DNA of 32,000 bases from Coprobacillaceae bacterium. GTDB lineage: Bacteria; Bacillota_I; Bacilli_A; Erysipelotrichales; Coprobacillaceae. The DNA lies in the NCBI GenBank assembly GCA_963675515.1, contig OY776328.1, positions 600,001-632,000 of the forward strand, in the 5' to 3' direction. A program made the translations under genes and the position numbers. Below, one piece after another: positions 3-22,862 of the stretch (positions are counted from its first letter, which is position 1; every line of letters starts with the position of its first letter). The notes beneath the pieces are model-generated. The model did not search any database. It was not told where the DNA came from and saw only the letters and a list, made by a program, of their open reading frames with translations.

Positions 3-71
3 GAGATCAAGCTCGTGCCTAAAGGAACGGTGATAACCAACACCGCTGCCTCATTCAAAAAAGCTACTTAA
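3..71 (+). CDS. 3' end of an unidentified upstream CDS (partial)
   Basis: Frame 3 is the only frame open from the window edge (...EIKLVPKGTVITNTAASFKKAT) to TAA at 69-71. A terminator follows immediately. 22 aa is too little to name. Confidence 0.35.
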   Translation, partial: EIKLVPKGTVITNTAASFKKAT

Positions 72-95
72 GACGTCCTTCGGGATGTCTTTTTG
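70..95 (+). terminator. Rho-independent terminator
   Basis: Stem AGACGTCC (71-78) / GGATGTCT (83-90) with one G-U pair, TTCG loop, then TTTT. Confidence 0.7.
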
Positions 96-186: not shown

Positions 187-846
187 ATGGAGAATAAAGG
201 CTTAAGCGTATTTGTGATTTTCATAGTCTCCCTGGCAAGTGTCTTTTTGAGTTCCAATCTGTTTTCTTCATTCGAACTCGACGCCCAATATGAATTTCAG
301 GGGCGGGTAGTTGCCATCACAAATGATGGGGTTGAAATCGAGACGGACGGCACGACCCAGGAAGTATCGCTGTCGGATGGCCAAAAGGGGCAACTTTATG
401 TCTTGGAAACCGTGGCCATAAGCGAAGGCGAAGTGTTCCAGGTGGACGACAGTTCGGTCGGTTATTATGAGAACATGCAAATAGTCACAAGTGAAGGTGT
501 GGTTCAAAACGTCGACAGTGAAGGTGTGACCATCAATGATACGACATATTCTTGCGACGATAACACAATCGATTGTGCGCCGGGGGATAATGTCTATTTC
601 GAATTTTATGAAGACAATGACGGGGTAGAAACAATCATCAACATGTACGAACAGGAAAAATTATTCGATCTTCGGGTGGAGACCATCAGCCGCAACAGTG
701 ATGGTTGCATGGTGTTGAACAATGAATATGTGATCGATGCCTCCACCGATCTGAACATCGATATCATGACAATTGCGGTTATGGATAATTGCCAGATCAG
801 CGTTGATGAGAAAAATAATATTGACATTCTAAGATATGTTGCATAG
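187..846 (+). CDS. Hypothetical secreted/anchored acidic protein with prepilin-like N-terminus (no Glu+5)
   Basis: AGGAG lies 7 nt upstream of the ATG. The N-terminus MENKG|LSVFVIFIVSLASVFLSS is a short polar leader ending in Gly followed by about 20 hydrophobic residues. The rest is acidic with 4 Cys and loose internal repeats (GRVVAITNDGVEIETDG / EGVVQNVDSEGVTINDT / RVETISRNSDGCMVLNN). Terminators flank it on both sides. Confidence 0.7.
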   Translation: MENKGLSVFVIFIVSLASVFLSSNLFSSFELDAQYEFQGRVVAITNDGVEIETDGTTQEVSLSDGQKGQLYVLETVAISEGEVFQVDDSSVGYYENMQIVTSEGVVQNVDSEGVTINDTTYSCDDNTIDCAPGDNVYFEFYEDNDGVETIINMYEQEKLFDLRVETISRNSDGCMVLNNEYVIDASTDLNIDIMTIAVMDNCQISVDEKNNIDILRYVA

Positions 847-847
847 T

Positions 848-869
848 AAAGCCGGTTTCCCGGCTTTTT
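848..869 (+). terminator. Rho-independent terminator
   Basis: AAAGCCGG (848-855), TTTC loop, CCGGCTTT (860-867), then a T-rich tail. It starts 2 nt after the stop codon. Confidence 0.8.
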
Positions 870-902
870 ATTATAGAAAAAGCACCGTAATACACACTAG
901 TA

Positions 903-931
903 TTGATTTTGTTCGATAAAATCGTTATAAT
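903..931 (+). promoter_or_regulatory. Sigma-A type promoter for the three-gene pilin-like operon
   Basis: TTGATT (903-908), 17-nt spacer, TATAAT (926-931). Confidence 0.6.
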
Positions 932-971
932 TGAGTTATGAATATTAATGTTTATTAGGGGAGTTGTGATT

Positions 972-1406
972 ATGAATAATAAAGGTTTCGGGCTGGTCTC
1001 GGTTTTGGCAATTTTTCTAGTATTGACAGTATTGATTGTTTCATTGATGACCTTGTCCAAGGTGCAGTCGCTGCAAGTAGTAAACCAAACGGTCGAGGAC
1101 CAATTGGAATTGACGGCAAAGAATGCAATCGACATGGTATCAACGGCCATAATCAATACCGAAACCGAAGGCGATGATGTCGCCCTGGCAAACATGGTTC
1201 CAGCAACAATTGATCAAAGTTACAATCTGGATATTGACCTTGGCGATGAGAGTCAGGGAACAATCTCCGATGCGAAAATCACCAGGACGGTCAAAAACGT
1301 CGCCATCATTTCCCTTACAGTATCGAAAGGGAATATCGACTATGACCTTAAGGGTGTGATGATCCGGGCAAATTTCAGATGGGAGTTTCAAAACTATGCT
1401 AAATGA
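972..1406 (+). CDS. Minor pseudopilin-like protein (ComGG/PilX-like layout, no Glu+5)
   Basis: A GGGGAG SD lies about 7 nt upstream of the ATG at 972. The ORF-track start at 948 has no SD. N-terminus is MNNKG|FGLVSVLAIFLVLTVLIVSLMTL. Length is 144 aa. Confidence 0.7.
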   Translation: MNNKGFGLVSVLAIFLVLTVLIVSLMTLSKVQSLQVVNQTVEDQLELTAKNAIDMVSTAIINTETEGDDVALANMVPATIDQSYNLDIDLGDESQGTISDAKITRTVKNVAIISLTVSKGNIDYDLKGVMIRANFRWEFQNYAK

Positions 1407-1716
1407 AAAAGGAATGACATTAGTTGAGGTTATTGTGTCGATGATCATACTTTCGATTATCATGCTTGGTGTGACAACTGCCTATCTTGCGTCATTGAAG
1501 CAGGATCTTGCGACAGCCAACTACCAAAGCATCGCTGACGATCTCAAGGTGCAGCTTGACAAAATGGATTTGAGCGGCGAAGCCGCCAATATTTCGGTAA
1601 CTATCGACTTCAATGACGGTGCCAAAATTGTTCAATTGAATGATGTGGTCCGCAAAGAGGTTTCGGATTCATCCGAGCCGACTATTTCGTTTGTGCGCTA
1701 CTATGCGCTTGACTGA
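1396..1716 (+). CDS. Prepilin-type N-terminal cleavage/methylation domain protein (minor pseudopilin, ComGD/GE-like size)
   Basis: MLNEKG|MTLVEVIVSMIILSIIMLG matches the class III signal G|(F/M)TL(V/I)E with Glu at +5. It overlaps the preceding CDS by 11 nt. GGGAG lies upstream. Confidence 0.8.
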   Translation: MLNEKGMTLVEVIVSMIILSIIMLGVTTAYLASLKQDLATANYQSIADDLKVQLDKMDLSGEAANISVTIDFNDGAKIVQLNDVVRKEVSDSSEPTISFVRYYALD

Positions 1717-1739
1717 CAAACCAAGAAGGTGGGATTGAT

Positions 1740-3362
1740 ATGAACAACCAAGGTTTTACATTAGTGGAAATTGTGATTACTTTGGCAATCGGTGCGATTG
1801 TGTCCATTGCCATAGGAAAATCGTTTTTTGATTATTTCAAGTCATATGGTCAGATGTCGACAACCCAGATCCAGACGATGGCTTTGAATGGCGTAAATGA
1901 AATCGTCAACAACCAGGTAGAAGATGCCATGACGGTTGCTATTCAACCCGGCAACTACGTCCTTCAGGATGGGGAATATGGCATTTATGCCAATGATGAT
2001 GGTGATCTGATGCTTTGCGACAAGAGCGGTGACATCATGACCATGTTCACCAGCCAGACAGGATCAATCAATATCCTGAACCTCTTTGTGGAAAAGGACA
2101 CCGACCTTAATCAGCTGAGGTTCAAGTACGTCTATACTGACGGTTCAAGCGAGATATTATCGCGTACGCTGACGACCCAGTTGTTCAATGCCGATGAGGT
2201 CAAATATCTAGGTAACAACTACAACGGTGATTCCAATACGTTCTTGCTTGAAAATGACAACGCCGCCAACATCCTGGTATTCACCGAGGCTTCGCTGACC
2301 TCGAACAAACCGGAAGACCCTACCGCCGAAGAGTATTATGCGATATTGTCATATTATCTTGGAGACCCTTCGTTCACCCCTGAAGACCCCCAAACGTATT
2401 TTTATGGGATGGTGTACTGGGATGGGGAAAAATATCAGGTTTTCAACAATACTTCAGTAATACAATATGGTGGAAAAGAAATCGATCTTAAAGATGTCCC
2501 AAGCTATGGCAGCCTGTTTGATGAAGCTACATATGAAAATGAGAAATATAGTGACTTTTACAATAGCTTCAAGAAAAACGGTCAGATAAATCTTAAAGGT
2601 GGTGTTGTTGTATTCTATGACGGCAAGTACTGGGTACGCCAACGTGCGCCAGAGGGAAATAATAGAGATGAGCAAGACAAGTCTTTTGCAGGACTGACGG
2701 GTGGAACTTATAGGTTGCTGGAAGATTTGAAAACTACAAAACTCTCTTCAGAACAGAAGTACCACATTGAATTGAAGTACTATGACTCTTCCGCTTCCTA
2801 CAATGCGGGGGATATCGTCTACAAAGATGGAGCGCTCTATCAAGTCACATACCATGCAAATGATGACGATAGTATAAGTATAAAATTTAATATACTTGAC
2901 TCACTATATGACGAGACCAAGTATCCGAATCTAATTGTCAAACTGGATGTAATTACCAAAGTGGAAATCGCGGTTTTTGATGAGACACTTCCTTACTATC
3001 TCAACAAGTATGTGATTGTAAGCTACGGGGAAACCGACCAGAAGGAAATATACAAAAAAGTCCTCGACAATACCAGTGTGACTGATCCAAGGGACACTAC
3101 CCAACGGTACAACGGTGGCTGGCAATTGCAGTCGAATCAGTATGATCCTTATTCATGTTATGTTGCCGGCAATCAGGTATTGGTTTTCGGTGATCAAAAT
3201 GATGAAATATATGTGATTACCTTCGGGGCGGAATATGTTGAAAGTGCGGCGGCTAGGATTGCCTTGGACGCGGATATTGCGACATGTTACAAAGATAACG
3301 CGGATTCAGCATCTAATAGCACGTATCATTATTCTATTGACAAATATGATTTCAACGATTAG
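1740..3362 (+). CDS. Large (540 aa) modular prepilin-type protein with a Tyr-rich C-terminal repeat module
   Basis: An AAGGTGGG SD precedes the ATG. MNNQG|FTLVEIVITLAIGAIVSIAIG is a textbook prepilin motif. A Pro/Glu linker spans about nt 2298-2399. The C-terminal roughly 320 aa carry four degenerate Y-x2-G-x2-V-x3-G-x2-[YW]-x-V repeats. Confidence 0.85.
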   Translation: MNNQGFTLVEIVITLAIGAIVSIAIGKSFFDYFKSYGQMSTTQIQTMALNGVNEIVNNQVEDAMTVAIQPGNYVLQDGEYGIYANDDGDLMLCDKSGDIMTMFTSQTGSINILNLFVEKDTDLNQLRFKYVYTDGSSEILSRTLTTQLFNADEVKYLGNNYNGDSNTFLLENDNAANILVFTEASLTSNKPEDPTAEEYYAILSYYLGDPSFTPEDPQTYFYGMVYWDGEKYQVFNNTSVIQYGGKEIDLKDVPSYGSLFDEATYENEKYSDFYNSFKKNGQINLKGGVVVFYDGKYWVRQRAPEGNNRDEQDKSFAGLTGGTYRLLEDLKTTKLSSEQKYHIELKYYDSSASYNAGDIVYKDGALYQVTYHANDDDSISIKFNILDSLYDETKYPNLIVKLDVITKVEIAVFDETLPYYLNKYVIVSYGETDQKEIYKKVLDNTSVTDPRDTTQRYNGGWQLQSNQYDPYSCYVAGNQVLVFGDQNDEIYVITFGAEYVESAAARIALDADIATCYKDNADSASNSTYHYSIDKYDFND

Positions 3363-3377
3363 GTAAGGTGAAATAAG

Positions 3378-4214
3378 TTGGTGGCTTTAAACGACAATTG
3401 GAAAGATTTGTATGTTGATGTTGATTTGTACCACGGCCTGATGACCAAGATCACCAGGGACAACGAAAAGTGCTGTCATCTGGCCTTGGCCAATGTGGAA
3501 ATCTGCTGTGGCAGTTACACCGATGCATTGCAGGCGGCAAAGGGCGGTGCCAGGCGGATTGAGCTGAACACATCCTTGGAGCAAGGTGGGCTGACTGCCA
3601 GCCCCTCGGTGGTGAGGCTGATCAAAGCCAATCTTGATTTGACTATCAATGCTATGGTCCGTTGCCGGGCTGGGGGCTTCCATTACAGTGACGATGATTT
3701 CCTGGTGATGAAAAGCCAGGCGCTCGAACTGATGGAGGCTGGTGCCGACGGAATAGTGTTCGGGTTTCTGGACCGCCATCGCAAGGTCGACTACCTGCGG
3801 GTTCAGGAGTTCGTCCACCTGATCCATTCCTACAACAAGAAGGCTATTTTCCACCGGGCTTTCGATGTGTGTGCCGACCCGCTCGAAGCGATGGCGGTGT
3901 TGATTGAACTTGGGGTTGATGTCCTTTTGACATCGGGCAAGAAGCAAACGGCACTCGAAGGCAAGGATTTGATAAGATATCTGGTTGGCCAATACGGCAA
4001 GCAGATTGAAATTGTCGCCGGAAGTGGAATAACCCATGAAAATGCCAAGGAACTGGTCTGCTACACCCAGGTAAAGAGCATCCATTCTTCCTGCAAGAAG
4101 TTTGTGAAGGATGCGACTGCCACATACCAGGGTGTCAGTTTCGAAACCGAGCGCCATGGACAGCAGGCTGTCAGTGGCCAAAAAGTTAAATTGTTGCTAG
4201 AGGAAGTGGTCTGA
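3378..4214 (+). CDS. cutC: CutC-family copper homeostasis protein
   Basis: NVEICCGSYTDALQAAKGGARRIELNTSLEQGGLTASPSVV matches the CutC N-terminal signature (E.C......A...GA.RIEL...L..GGLTPS). The TTG start at 3378 has an AAGGTGA SD 6 nt upstream. An alternative ATG sits at 3441. Confidence 0.8.
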   Translation: MVALNDNWKDLYVDVDLYHGLMTKITRDNEKCCHLALANVEICCGSYTDALQAAKGGARRIELNTSLEQGGLTASPSVVRLIKANLDLTINAMVRCRAGGFHYSDDDFLVMKSQALELMEAGADGIVFGFLDRHRKVDYLRVQEFVHLIHSYNKKAIFHRAFDVCADPLEAMAVLIELGVDVLLTSGKKQTALEGKDLIRYLVGQYGKQIEIVAGSGITHENAKELVCYTQVKSIHSSCKKFVKDATATYQGVSFETERHGQQAVSGQKVKLLLEEVV

Positions 4215-4228
4215 CCACTTCCTTTGTT
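4201..4228 (+). terminator. Rho-independent terminator of cutC
   Basis: Perfect 10-bp stem AGGAAGTGGT (4201-4210) / ACCACTTCCT (4214-4223) with a CTG loop, then TTGTTT. The stem includes the TGA stop. Confidence 0.8.
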
Positions 4229-21956: not shown

Positions 21957-21985
21957 CGAAAAAGCCCTAGTATTAAGAGGGCTTT
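21957..21985 (-). terminator. Rho-independent terminator of the degV-rnj-phosphoesterase operon
   Basis: Minus strand: AAAGCCCT CTTAATACT AGGGCTTT followed by TT. The stem overlaps the TAA stop. Confidence 0.65.
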
Positions 21986-22862
21986 ACTCTACGCTGGAAT
22001 TGTCGCTGGAATCCTGGCTTTCGGTCTGGACTGTTGTGGCGATTTCCTGGTGTTTAAGTTCGATGATGTCAATATGATTATCGCATAGGAATTTGAATTT
22101 GAAATTCGATTCCTCGTCATAACCGTTGGATACGATCAGGCTCGCCTGATTCTTTTCATAGCGGCCATGAGTGTAGATCGAACCGTTGGTTTTCTTGATC
22201 ATGCCGCCGACAAAAGGCAGATAGATGTAACCGCCATTGGTGTGACCAGAAAGCTGCAGACTGGTCAAAGAGCAATTGGTCTGGAAACTGTCAGGCTCGT
22301 GGGCAAGGGTGATGGAAAAATCCGCTTTTTCACTGGTGATGTTTTCCAGGTTGCTTGAAGGATCGATGCCATACAGGGTGAAGTAATCATCCTTGAAATA
22401 TATAATCCTTTTTTCGTTTTGAAGGACCTCAAAACCGGCCTTGTTCAAGATGGCGATGATGTTGGCTTTGTTTGGAATGTCCTTGTCGCCTAGCACCGCG
22501 AACTTGCCATAGCTTGTCTTGATTGAGGAAAGGATTGAAATCACATTTGTCTCGTCGAAAATAGAGCTTTCGTAAAGGTCTCCGGCAAACAGGACCATGT
22601 CGCTGTTCTGGCCGTTGATCGAGGTGATCAGATCACTCAATTCATCGACATCGGTTGAATCAGTCAGGTTCACATCGGAAAGCATTGTGATCTGGAAATC
22701 GTCTAAAGTGGTCGAGACAGCAGGTGACTGGTATTGGACTTTATTGAAGGAAACTTGGTTGGGGGCGACAAAATAGCTATATGCAACGGTTGCAATTAAA
22801 CCACTGATTATCAAAATGGCAATCAGTGGTTTGAGTTTTATTTTGCGTCTTTTCTTAGTCAT
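21984..22862 (-). CDS. Membrane-anchored metallophosphoesterase (YkuE/YaeI-like)
   Basis: An N-terminal TM segment (LIAILIISGLIATVAYSYFV) is present. Motifs are LSDVNL, FAGDLYE, LGDKD, HEPD and SGHTNGG. The start overlaps the rnj stop by 8 nt. Confidence 0.8.
   Translation of the reverse strand: MTKKRRKIKLKPLIAILIISGLIATVAYSYFVAPNQVSFNKVQYQSPAVSTTLDDFQITMLSDVNLTDSTDVDELSDLITSINGQNSDMVLFAGDLYESSIFDETNVISILSSIKTSYGKFAVLGDKDIPNKANIIAILNKAGFEVLQNEKRIIYFKDDYFTLYGIDPSSNLENITSEKADFSITLAHEPDSFQTNCSLTSLQLSGHTNGGYIYLPFVGGMIKKTNGSIYTHGRYEKNQASLIVSNGYDEESNFKFKFLCDNHIDIIELKHQEIATTVQTESQDSSDNSSVE

Follow-up and report, generated by a model that had tools for sequence, protein, structure and literature searches.

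Within a 32,000-nucleotide window from the genome of an uncultured, gut-type Coprobacillaceae bacterium (assembly GCA_963675515.1, contig OY776328.1, positions 600,001 to 632,000), four consecutive genes, designated g1 to g4, code for proteins with N-termini reminiscent of type IV prepilins. Judged by their sequences and those of their homologues, g2, g3 and g4 are a genuine minor-pilin triad that is conserved, under selection and unlinked to pilus machinery, and that contains a rare modular adhesin pilin with repeats resembling carbohydrate-binding modules of the CBM5/12 type; the arrangement itself is ordinary. We consider it probable that these three genes form an operon for type IV minor pilins that serve as a tip or initiation module, with the machinery and the major pilin encoded elsewhere. 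An earlier examination of the bare DNA letters (the sequence-only reading) had described all four products as such a module of a Gram-positive type IV filament, set apart from its machinery. This description is supported for g2 to g4 and is not confirmed for g1.

The proteins encoded by g1 to g4 all begin with a short basic leader, a glycine and about 20 hydrophobic residues, and this layout is kept in their orthologues. For g3 and g4, profile searches identify it as a prepilin signature: both proteins score above the curated thresholds of the Pfam model N_methyl (31.5 and 28.4 bits, respectively, vs 21.2) and of TIGR02532 (24.9 and 23.6 vs 16.3), and their residue Glu5 (MTLVE in g3, FTLVE in g4) is invariant across homologues. 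This glutamate is absent from g2 (FGLVS) and g1 (LSVFV), which leaves two products with and two without it, as had been noted before. Matches of g3 and g4 to PDB sequence profiles are weak and limited to the N-terminal helix, and they point to pilins only; the same search with g2 came back empty. The g2 protein matches neither N_methyl nor TIGR02532, and its leader (KG/FGLV[ST], with the slash following the glycine) is invariant in five orthologues that share an overall identity of 50–92%. The profile searches proposed by the sequence-only reading were, in sum, positive for g3 and g4 with both prepilin models, which g1 and g2 do not match, and gave no match with ComGG.

Related genomes indicate which of the four genes belong together. 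A protein of ~145 amino acids without Glu5, a pilin of ~105 amino acids and a pilin of 530–714 amino acids recur as a set in all five kinds of genomic context recovered: the window, L002 and L021 (g4 identity 54–74%), L001 and L008 (~45%), and L005–7 with the g4 relative P0008. Across these contexts, in all of which g3 is conserved, the proteins of the triad share 41–92% identity, and each orthologous set has exactly one member without Glu5, namely g2. In L001, L008 and L005–7 the triad is not preceded by g1. Hence, of the four-gene block whose conservation the earlier reading had put up for examination, g2 to g4 are retained in every context and g1 in the closest relatives only; by this comparison the conserved unit is the triad g2-g3-g4 and not the tetrad. 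Relative to L002 and L021, the ratio of nonsynonymous to synonymous substitution rates (dN/dS) ranges from 0.03 to 0.13 for g1 to g4 (0.03–0.11 for g2 to g4, with 0.03–0.08 for g2), values that are approximate because dS is saturated. The housekeeping genes cutC and cysK give 0.03–0.07 in the same comparison. These ratios indicate that g1 to g4 are under purifying selection, like their housekeeping neighbours.

More distant relatives bear on the question as to which machine this triad derives from. The g2 family aligns over its full length with the 148- and 152-amino-acid partners, also devoid of Glu5, of the large pilins P0060 and P0061 (L015 and L017; hhalign probability 94.4%, E 8.8e-8, 140 columns). 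Because of this alignment we regard the window triad and the P0060/P0061 triads as homologous sets. The locus of P0060 reads pilC (C-terminal part), pilM, a pilN-like gene of 214 codons, a pilO-like gene of 199 codons (T2SSM, weak), the triad and pilB (N-terminal part), with PilC and PilB confirmed by tblastn (8e-11 and 1e-25). Its triad consists of proteins of 148 (NNKG/STIIT, no Glu5), 283 (NNKG/FTLIE) and 522 amino acids, the last being P0060 itself. In a second, independent metagenomic locus (L022) a g4-family member of 502 amino acids is encoded directly upstream of pilB. The NCBIfam models of the ComG pseudopilins gave sub-threshold scores with g3 (ComGE, 22.7 vs 49; ComGF, 21.1 vs 80; ComGD, 18 vs 70), all confined to the N-terminal helix; they did not match g1, g2 or g4, and Pfam ComGG was matched by none. 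Since homologous triads sit inside pilus clusters and the ComG scores remain below threshold, the evidence points to descent of the cassette from pili of the PilB/PilC/PilMNO type and not from the Com pseudopilus, two options between which the sequence-only reading had not chosen.

Upstream of the pilin triad of L017 (680, 152 and 491 amino acids), positions 1–366 hold a gene fragment with a literal GGDEF motif (...YRVGGDEFIGISF...), which hints at a link to cyclic di-GMP. Such a link is known for the type IV pili of Clostridioides difficile. A cyclic di-GMP riboswitch of the kind found at C. difficile pilA1 was considered for the window and rejected: Rfam searches detected no riboswitch or other RNA in the whole window, nor in the leader regions under permissive settings.

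With 540 residues, an N_methyl leader and a grafted module, the g4 protein fits the definition of modular type IV pilins given by Raynaud et al. (2021). Its family is small: a search of 5.8 billion clustered proteins turned up nine homologues, and an exhaustive search of 1.84 billion representatives with a hidden Markov model (HMM) yielded four clusters below 1e-30 and ~45 weak matches, many of which are pilins of 450–690 amino acids. Widening the profile for a third homology search brought in P0060 and P0061 and nothing else. A scan of JGI metagenome contigs with the family minus its N-terminus yielded no relatives, and a genome-contig scan seeded by the generic motif KGFTLVEI returned only ordinary Clostridial and Lachnospiraceae pilus operons. 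In an alignment of ten family members, residues 1 to ~200 stand apart as an N-terminal region from a C-terminal one in which the repeat units Y..GD.V.Y.G..Y and GGWQLQ.NQYDP.S.Y abound. Distant large pilins align with the former, and non-pilin proteins with residues 343–500. P0008 (714 amino acids) carries an entire vWA domain (PF00092/PF13519) as an insertion at the junction of the two regions, which directly attests to a modular build.

Several observations connect the C-terminal repeats with CBM5/12. The g4 profile matches the non-pilin protein P0030 at g4 residues 343–424 (E 3.2e-5 in 1.84 billion proteins), hhalign recovers the same relationship between P0030 and the g4 family (80.7%, E 1.3e-5), and P0030 is itself a true repeat protein of the CBM_5_12 type (Pfam, 57 bits). 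Within the wider family, P0022 and P0061 pass the threshold of Pfam CBM_5_12 (PF02839; 34.9 and 34.5 vs 26.2 bits), P0017 and P0020 come near it (25.0 and 24.1), and 14 of 26 members are matched at E≤10. An HMM of the repeat unit, built from the distant repeats, matches g4 at residues 346–368 and 465–477 and its relatives at equivalent positions. Membership of the C-terminal module in CBM5/12 is therefore likely; it is not established, because the Pfam model misses g4 itself. One protein with the architecture N_methyl plus CBM5/12 (IPR012902-IPR003610) is included in the catalogue of Raynaud et al. (Dataset S1 of PMC8179133). This entry resembles the wider g4 family in architecture; it is a bare database listing of an uncharacterised protein, and unlike it g4 has diverged too far for the Pfam CBM model. 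A phage tail-fibre origin of the C-terminal module was also considered and found unsupported, since tblastn of this module against phage genomes returned nothing.

In the Erysipelotrichaceae metagenome-assembled genome GCA_028690185.1 (L005, 868–3012; L006, 274–7383), the triad has as its neighbours a cold-shock gene and two transposase genes (DDE_Tnp_1) in place of cutC. With these neighbours and the vWA insertion, the cassette has both changed its location and exchanged modules. In the window its GC content (0.41–0.45) is within the range of the neighbourhood and thus gives no compositional sign of recent transfer.

Several results weigh against our interpretation of g2 to g4. The connection to pilus clusters depends on distant relatives with ~20–29% identity. 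Comparison with the minor pseudopilins of Escherichia coli by hhalign provided no similarity between g2 and GspK (0.4%) and a weak one between g4 and GspJ (54%, residues 2–96), and the match of g3 to GspI (56%) covers the N-terminal helix only. As regards the adhesin module, Pfam CBM_5_12 does not match g4 even at E≤10, and the hhalign probability for its CBM5/12 likeness is only 81%. AlphaFold2 models of g4 (ten sequences; predicted local distance difference test score, pLDDT, 46.7) and of g1 are too poor to reveal a pilin fold because sequence depth is too low, and, as expected, Foldseek returned only noise for the g4 model, with no PDB match at E≤0.001. Finally, neither the window nor the 10-kb flanks in relatives contain an ATPase, a platform protein, a prepilin peptidase, PilMNO or a major pilin.

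Table 1. Coordinates of genes, protein modules and transcription signals. Positions count from the first base of the window; aa, amino acids; in the N-terminal motifs a slash follows the glycine.
Feature	Positions	Strand	Description
g1	187–846	+	219 aa, MENKG/LSVFV; lineage-specific, prepilin look-alike N-terminus followed by a beta-rich region
g2	972–1406	+	144 aa, MNNKG/FGLVS; predicted minor pilin without Glu5
g3	1396–1716	+	106 aa, MLNEKG/MTLVE; canonical small minor pilin
g4	1740–3362	+	540 aa, MNNQG/FTLVE; large modular pilin
g4, N-terminal pilin module	1740–2339	+	residues 1 to ~200; class III signal peptide with Glu5 and pilin moiety
g4, C-terminal module	2340–3362	+	residues ~201–540; CBM5/12-like repeats, predicted glycan-binding adhesin part
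Terminator-like hairpin, end of upstream gene	70–91	+	9-bp stem and T-run (scan)
Terminator-like hairpin between g1 and g2	848–867	+	8-bp stem with 5 GC pairs, then TTATTAT (scan)
Sigma-70-like promoter of g2-g3-g4	903–931	+	TTGATT, 17 nt, TATAAT; 10/12, consensus match only
Next terminator-like hairpin 3' of g4, beyond cutC	4198–4226	+	scan

The gene calls and signals collected in Table 1 agree with the sequence-only reading, which had placed the four open reading frames at the same positions, terminators on either side of g1 and a promoter ahead of g2; this promoter is the top-scoring match within the first 5 kb of the window. The mechanically called reading frame of g2 opens at 948. We place the start at ATG 972 because a ribosome-binding site (AGGGGAG) precedes this codon by 8 nucleotides and because all orthologues begin at M[ND][NK][KQ]G. 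The junctions are as tight as had been described, with an overlap of 11 nucleotides between g2 and g3 and a gap of 23 nucleotides between g3 and g4. A six-frame scan of all open reading frames of at least 60 codons in the window, using a pattern of basic leader, glycine and 21 mostly hydrophobic residues, recovered g1, g2 and g3, with g4 falling marginally below the strict hydrophobicity cut-off, and it found no further prepilin-like N-terminus. Given that the rest of the 32 kb contains no matching N-terminus, the clustering of g1 to g4 is not due to chance.

The gene cutC (3378–4214, from TTG 3378 or a later start) begins 16 nucleotides past the g4 stop codon. It also follows g4 in L001, L002, L008 and L021, and does not in L005. 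The scan detected no terminator-like hairpin in 3362–4198. Since the first hairpin 3' of g4 comes only after cutC, transcription may read through, and g2 to g4 are perhaps co-transcribed with cutC, although plain synteny would account for the arrangement as well.

The case of g1 is different. None of the pilin models of Pfam and NCBIfam, including N_methyl and TIGR02532, matches this protein, and its weak HMM matches are to small beta-barrel domains only (DUF5666, CusF, S1). The database contains five homologues, all from the closest relatives, in which the N-terminus M[EQ]N[KR]GLSVFV and the following ~20 hydrophobic residues are almost invariant. After residue 30, directly past the hydrophobic segment, the protein continues with glycine-rich sequence of the beta type in place of a long amphipathic alpha-1C helix. 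Alignment with the g2 family by hhalign comprises 14 N-terminal residues at 4% probability, and an AlphaFold2 model from five sequences (pLDDT 43.9) is too poor to interpret. The dN/dS of g1 (0.08–0.13, approximate) was obtained in the same comparison as that of the triad. With a private promoter and terminators, and with homologues in the closest relatives only, g1 is set apart from the triad. It is most likely an unrelated, signal-anchored and beta-rich surface membrane protein. A role of g1 as the major pilin was rejected because it has neither Glu5 nor an alpha-1C helix and because some lineages possess the triad without it.

Consequently, the proposal that the four genes encode one set of pilins is not confirmed for g1, which is lineage-specific, matches no pilin model, has its own transcription signals and is beta-rich. 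With it goes the unusual composition that had been seen in two of four members without Glu5: once g1 is set aside, the canonical one of three remains, as in GspIJK and in PilABC of Streptococcus sanguinis (PMC9934059).

The C-termini of g1 (...NNIDILRYVA, 817–846) and g3 (...EPTISFVRYYALD, 1681–1716) share the motif [IF][LV]RY[VY]A, and orthologues retain both termini. According to one proposal, tip complexes are licensed by terminal beta-strand complementation (PMC13533445), and the shared motif could be meaningful or coincidental. In L001 (3499–8771) and L008 (3485–8818) other genes precede the triad, and a surface-protein island takes the place of g1. This island encodes an FctA-type protein, similar to those of sortase pili, a Cadherin-like protein anchored in the membrane by its C-terminus, and a 705-amino-acid protein that ends in a duplicated dockerin-like motif (DANLDGKISSTDY...DYNGDGKVSSLDY).

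The surroundings of the cassette contain no sign of a pilus locus. The window opens with the last 22 codons of an upstream gene (1–69), and bases 3–68 translate to EIKLVPKGTVITNTAASFKKAT, which matches the C-terminus of a 949-amino-acid Glucosaminidase/Big_2/ChW protein of L002. As this gene is preceded by the capsule genes LytR-CpsB-CpsD-Wzz in L002 and L021, the region upstream of the window should hold cell-envelope genes and not pilus machinery. Downstream, 3.4–12.6 kb is syntenic with the relatives' genes for CutC, cysteine synthase, aminotransferases, MatE, HAD, PHP, SerC and SerA, and Pfam assigns housekeeping families to open reading frames of 12.7–31.3 kb (RidA, AroE, Ham1, SpoU, Lit, rubrerythrin, Fur, HflX, ArgH, ArgG, RNase J, DegV and thioredoxin, among others), which bears out the description of the neighbours as housekeeping genes. 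Housekeeping proteins of the window cluster with metagenome-derived Erysipelotrichaceae proteins. For a reading frame of 292 codons (21984–22862, minus strand) that lies between argG and the gene for RNase J, Pfam offers no match at E≤0.001. Searches by tblastn with E. coli HofB, HofC, GspE, GspF, GspO, GspL and GspM found nothing in the window or in 10 kb on each side of the cassette in relatives, and the same queries detected Firmicute pilB, pilC and pilD in control loci (1e-7 to 1e-121). Together with Pfam and synteny, these searches confirm that the window encodes no traffic ATPase, platform protein or prepilin peptidase. Since no gene of the GspE or GspF family occurs in these regions, the triad is not part of a comGA-comGB-comGC operon there. 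Pilin operons unlinked to biosynthetic genes have been documented in Gram-positive bacteria (PMC3244431), so that missing machinery within 32 kb is not remarkable.

How might the three proteins work? The mechanism that we propose is modelled on HIJK/GspIJK and, most closely, on PilA, PilB and PilC of S. sanguinis. The leaders of g2, g3 and g4 would most likely be cleaved by the prepilin peptidase of the cell, and the mature proteins would come together within the membrane as a small initiation and tip complex. We place g2 at the very top because a protein without Glu5 needs no subunit above it, with g3 and the pilin module of g4 docking beneath. In this arrangement g2 is the candidate cap, or the subunit incorporated first, comparable in role to K or to PilA of S. 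sanguinis; loss of Glu5 is tolerated in K-type subunits and in this PilA (PMC9934059). A major pilin would then be polymerized underneath by a PilB/PilC/PilMNO-type machine, both presumably encoded elsewhere in the genome. The bulky C-terminal half of g4 would remain exposed at the filament tip, where its CBM5/12-like repeats could act as a glycan-binding adhesin.

The closest known counterpart is the tip complex of S. sanguinis, which consists of PilA (small, no Glu5), PilB (vWA) and PilC (lectin) (PMC9934059, PMC8179133). Both systems are monoderm operons for three minor pilins with one small member lacking Glu5 (PilA and g2), and both contain large modular pilins with Glu5, the vWA domain of PilB recalling the insertion in P0008 and the lectin of PilC the CBM5/12-like repeats of g4. 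The predicted role, namely tip location, filament initiation and adhesion, is also shared. The two sets differ in that no sequence homology is detectable past the N-terminal helix, in the fold family of the adhesin, in the number of modular members (one of three in the window triad) and in the minimal size of g3. Furthermore, the S. sanguinis genes reside with the machinery inside the pil locus, whereas g2 to g4 are unlinked, and g2 to g4 are known from sequence alone.

Like GspIJK and PilIJK, the latter of which form licensing complexes (PMC13533445), the triad is a minor-pilin set behind one promoter with exactly one member without Glu5 and a presumed priming or capping role. Matches to the corresponding models fall far below the family thresholds: g2 scores 22.4 bits with GspK (cut-off 130), g3 scores 28.3 with PilV (cut-off 52) and has further weak matches to GspI and GspH, and g4 scores 15.6 with GspI (cut-off 44) and 13.3 with GspJ (cut-off 65). 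By model cut-offs and hhalign, g2 to g4 are therefore not members of the GspI, GspJ or GspK families. The size logic is also the reverse of that of GspK, in that the small g2 lacks Glu5 and the large g4 keeps it; compared with HIJK there is no H-like fourth pilin, and a non-pilin adhesin of the PilY1/PilC type was not seen. The pilus clusters of Clostridia (L015, L022, L014 and that of C. difficile, in which PilV, PilU and PilK are a predicted tip complex, PMC9556784) follow the same three-gene logic. In such clusters the distant homologues of g2 and g4 sit between pilO and pilB, and the window triad is detached. C. ihumii (L014, 15837–18858) has, after pilMNO, a 547-amino-acid pilin without Glu5 (SG/SALIT) and a 307-amino-acid pilin with it, thus the opposite size logic. 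The ComG set ComGD/E/F/G (PMC8727766, PMC12153270) is likewise monoderm, with small minor pilins and one atypical member without Glu5 (ComGG), and it shares weak N-terminal HMM matches with the triad. It differs by scores below every cut-off, by its place in the comG operon, by the lack of a 540-amino-acid modular member, and by the position of the triad's homologues beside pilMNO and pilB.

This resemblance raises the question whether the triad serves the ComG competence pseudopilus, either by contributing additional minor pilins or by refitting the Com machine for the display of an adhesin. Erysipelotrichales commonly carry a vertically inherited comG operon (PMC12786226), the host lineage has no type IV pilus machinery near the cassette (window and 10-kb flanks in relatives), and g3 does match ComGE, ComGF and ComGD weakly. 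However, these scores are far below the cut-offs and arise within the shared N-terminal helix, Com minor pilins are normally encoded inside the comG operon, and homologous triads adjoin pilM/N/O, pilC and pilB; we regard this explanation as rather unlikely. A more elaborate version, which we find doubtful, holds that the lineage has no pilus machine of its own and that the triad plugs into the ComG machinery and its prepilin peptidase, which would convert a DNA-uptake pseudopilus into a filament with a CBM5/12-like glycan-adhesin tip, perhaps with g1 as an additional partner without Glu5. If so, the genes would amount to a portable tip cassette that re-programs a housekeeping type IV filament. 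It is also unlikely that g1 to g4 are all subunits of one complex, with g1 as a second non-canonical pilin without Glu5 or as a pilus-associated partner. The almost invariant N-terminus of g1 in five orthologues, its constant position directly upstream of the triad in close relatives, the purifying selection on it and the resemblance of its C-terminus (...ILRYVA) to that of g3 (...SFVRYYA), seen by direct reading, would be in line with this notion. The absence of g1 from three more distant lineages that retain the triad argues against it, as do the separate promoter and terminators, the failure of g1 to match pilin HMMs or the g2 family beyond 14 residues, and the beta-type, weakly small-beta-barrel-like sequence past residue 30 that takes the place of an alpha-1C helix.

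Two further explanations deny the triad a filament. The cassette might be an evolutionary leftover of a lost machinery, its genes being non-functional or re-used for membrane-anchored surface proteins. Its isolation among housekeeping genes, with no machinery in ~50 kb (window and syntenic flanks), and the extreme rarity of the family could be accounted for in this way. Nevertheless, the reading frames show no disruption, Gly-1, Glu5 and the rest of the leader motifs do not vary, and dN/dS is 0.03–0.11 across lineages down to 41% identity; a motif for cleavage and assembly would hardly stay so conserved if peptidase and machine were missing, which makes this explanation very improbable. Finally, the N-termini could be ordinary signal anchors of unrelated families, as the sequence-only reading had itself allowed. 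This may hold for g1, and neither g1 nor g2 is recognized by N_methyl models. For g3 and g4 it is contradicted by two curated prepilin models and by PDB profile matches that, though weak, are to pilins only, and g2 is homologous to a protein from pilus clusters. We can hardly credit this alternative for the triad, and we retain the interpretation of g2 to g4 as a minor-pilin tip module.

A specialist is unlikely to be surprised by the triad as such, and the practical value of the finding is modest: it annotates four hypothetical proteins, flags a small and previously unnamed pilin family, and offers a target for adhesion studies in Erysipelotrichaceae. S. sanguinis PilABC is so far the monoderm tip complex that has been worked out in detail. 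If our interpretation is correct, g2 to g4 would add to the few monoderm examples a compact tip set made of a small cap without Glu5, a minimal pilin and a modular adhesin pilin, and they would imply that such sets can travel as a detachable cassette. Uncultured Erysipelotrichaceae would then make a type IV filament tipped by a carbohydrate-binding adhesin, or by a vWA adhesin in a sister lineage, and in their habitat the cassette would be a candidate determinant of binding to chitin, mucin or the glycans of cell walls.

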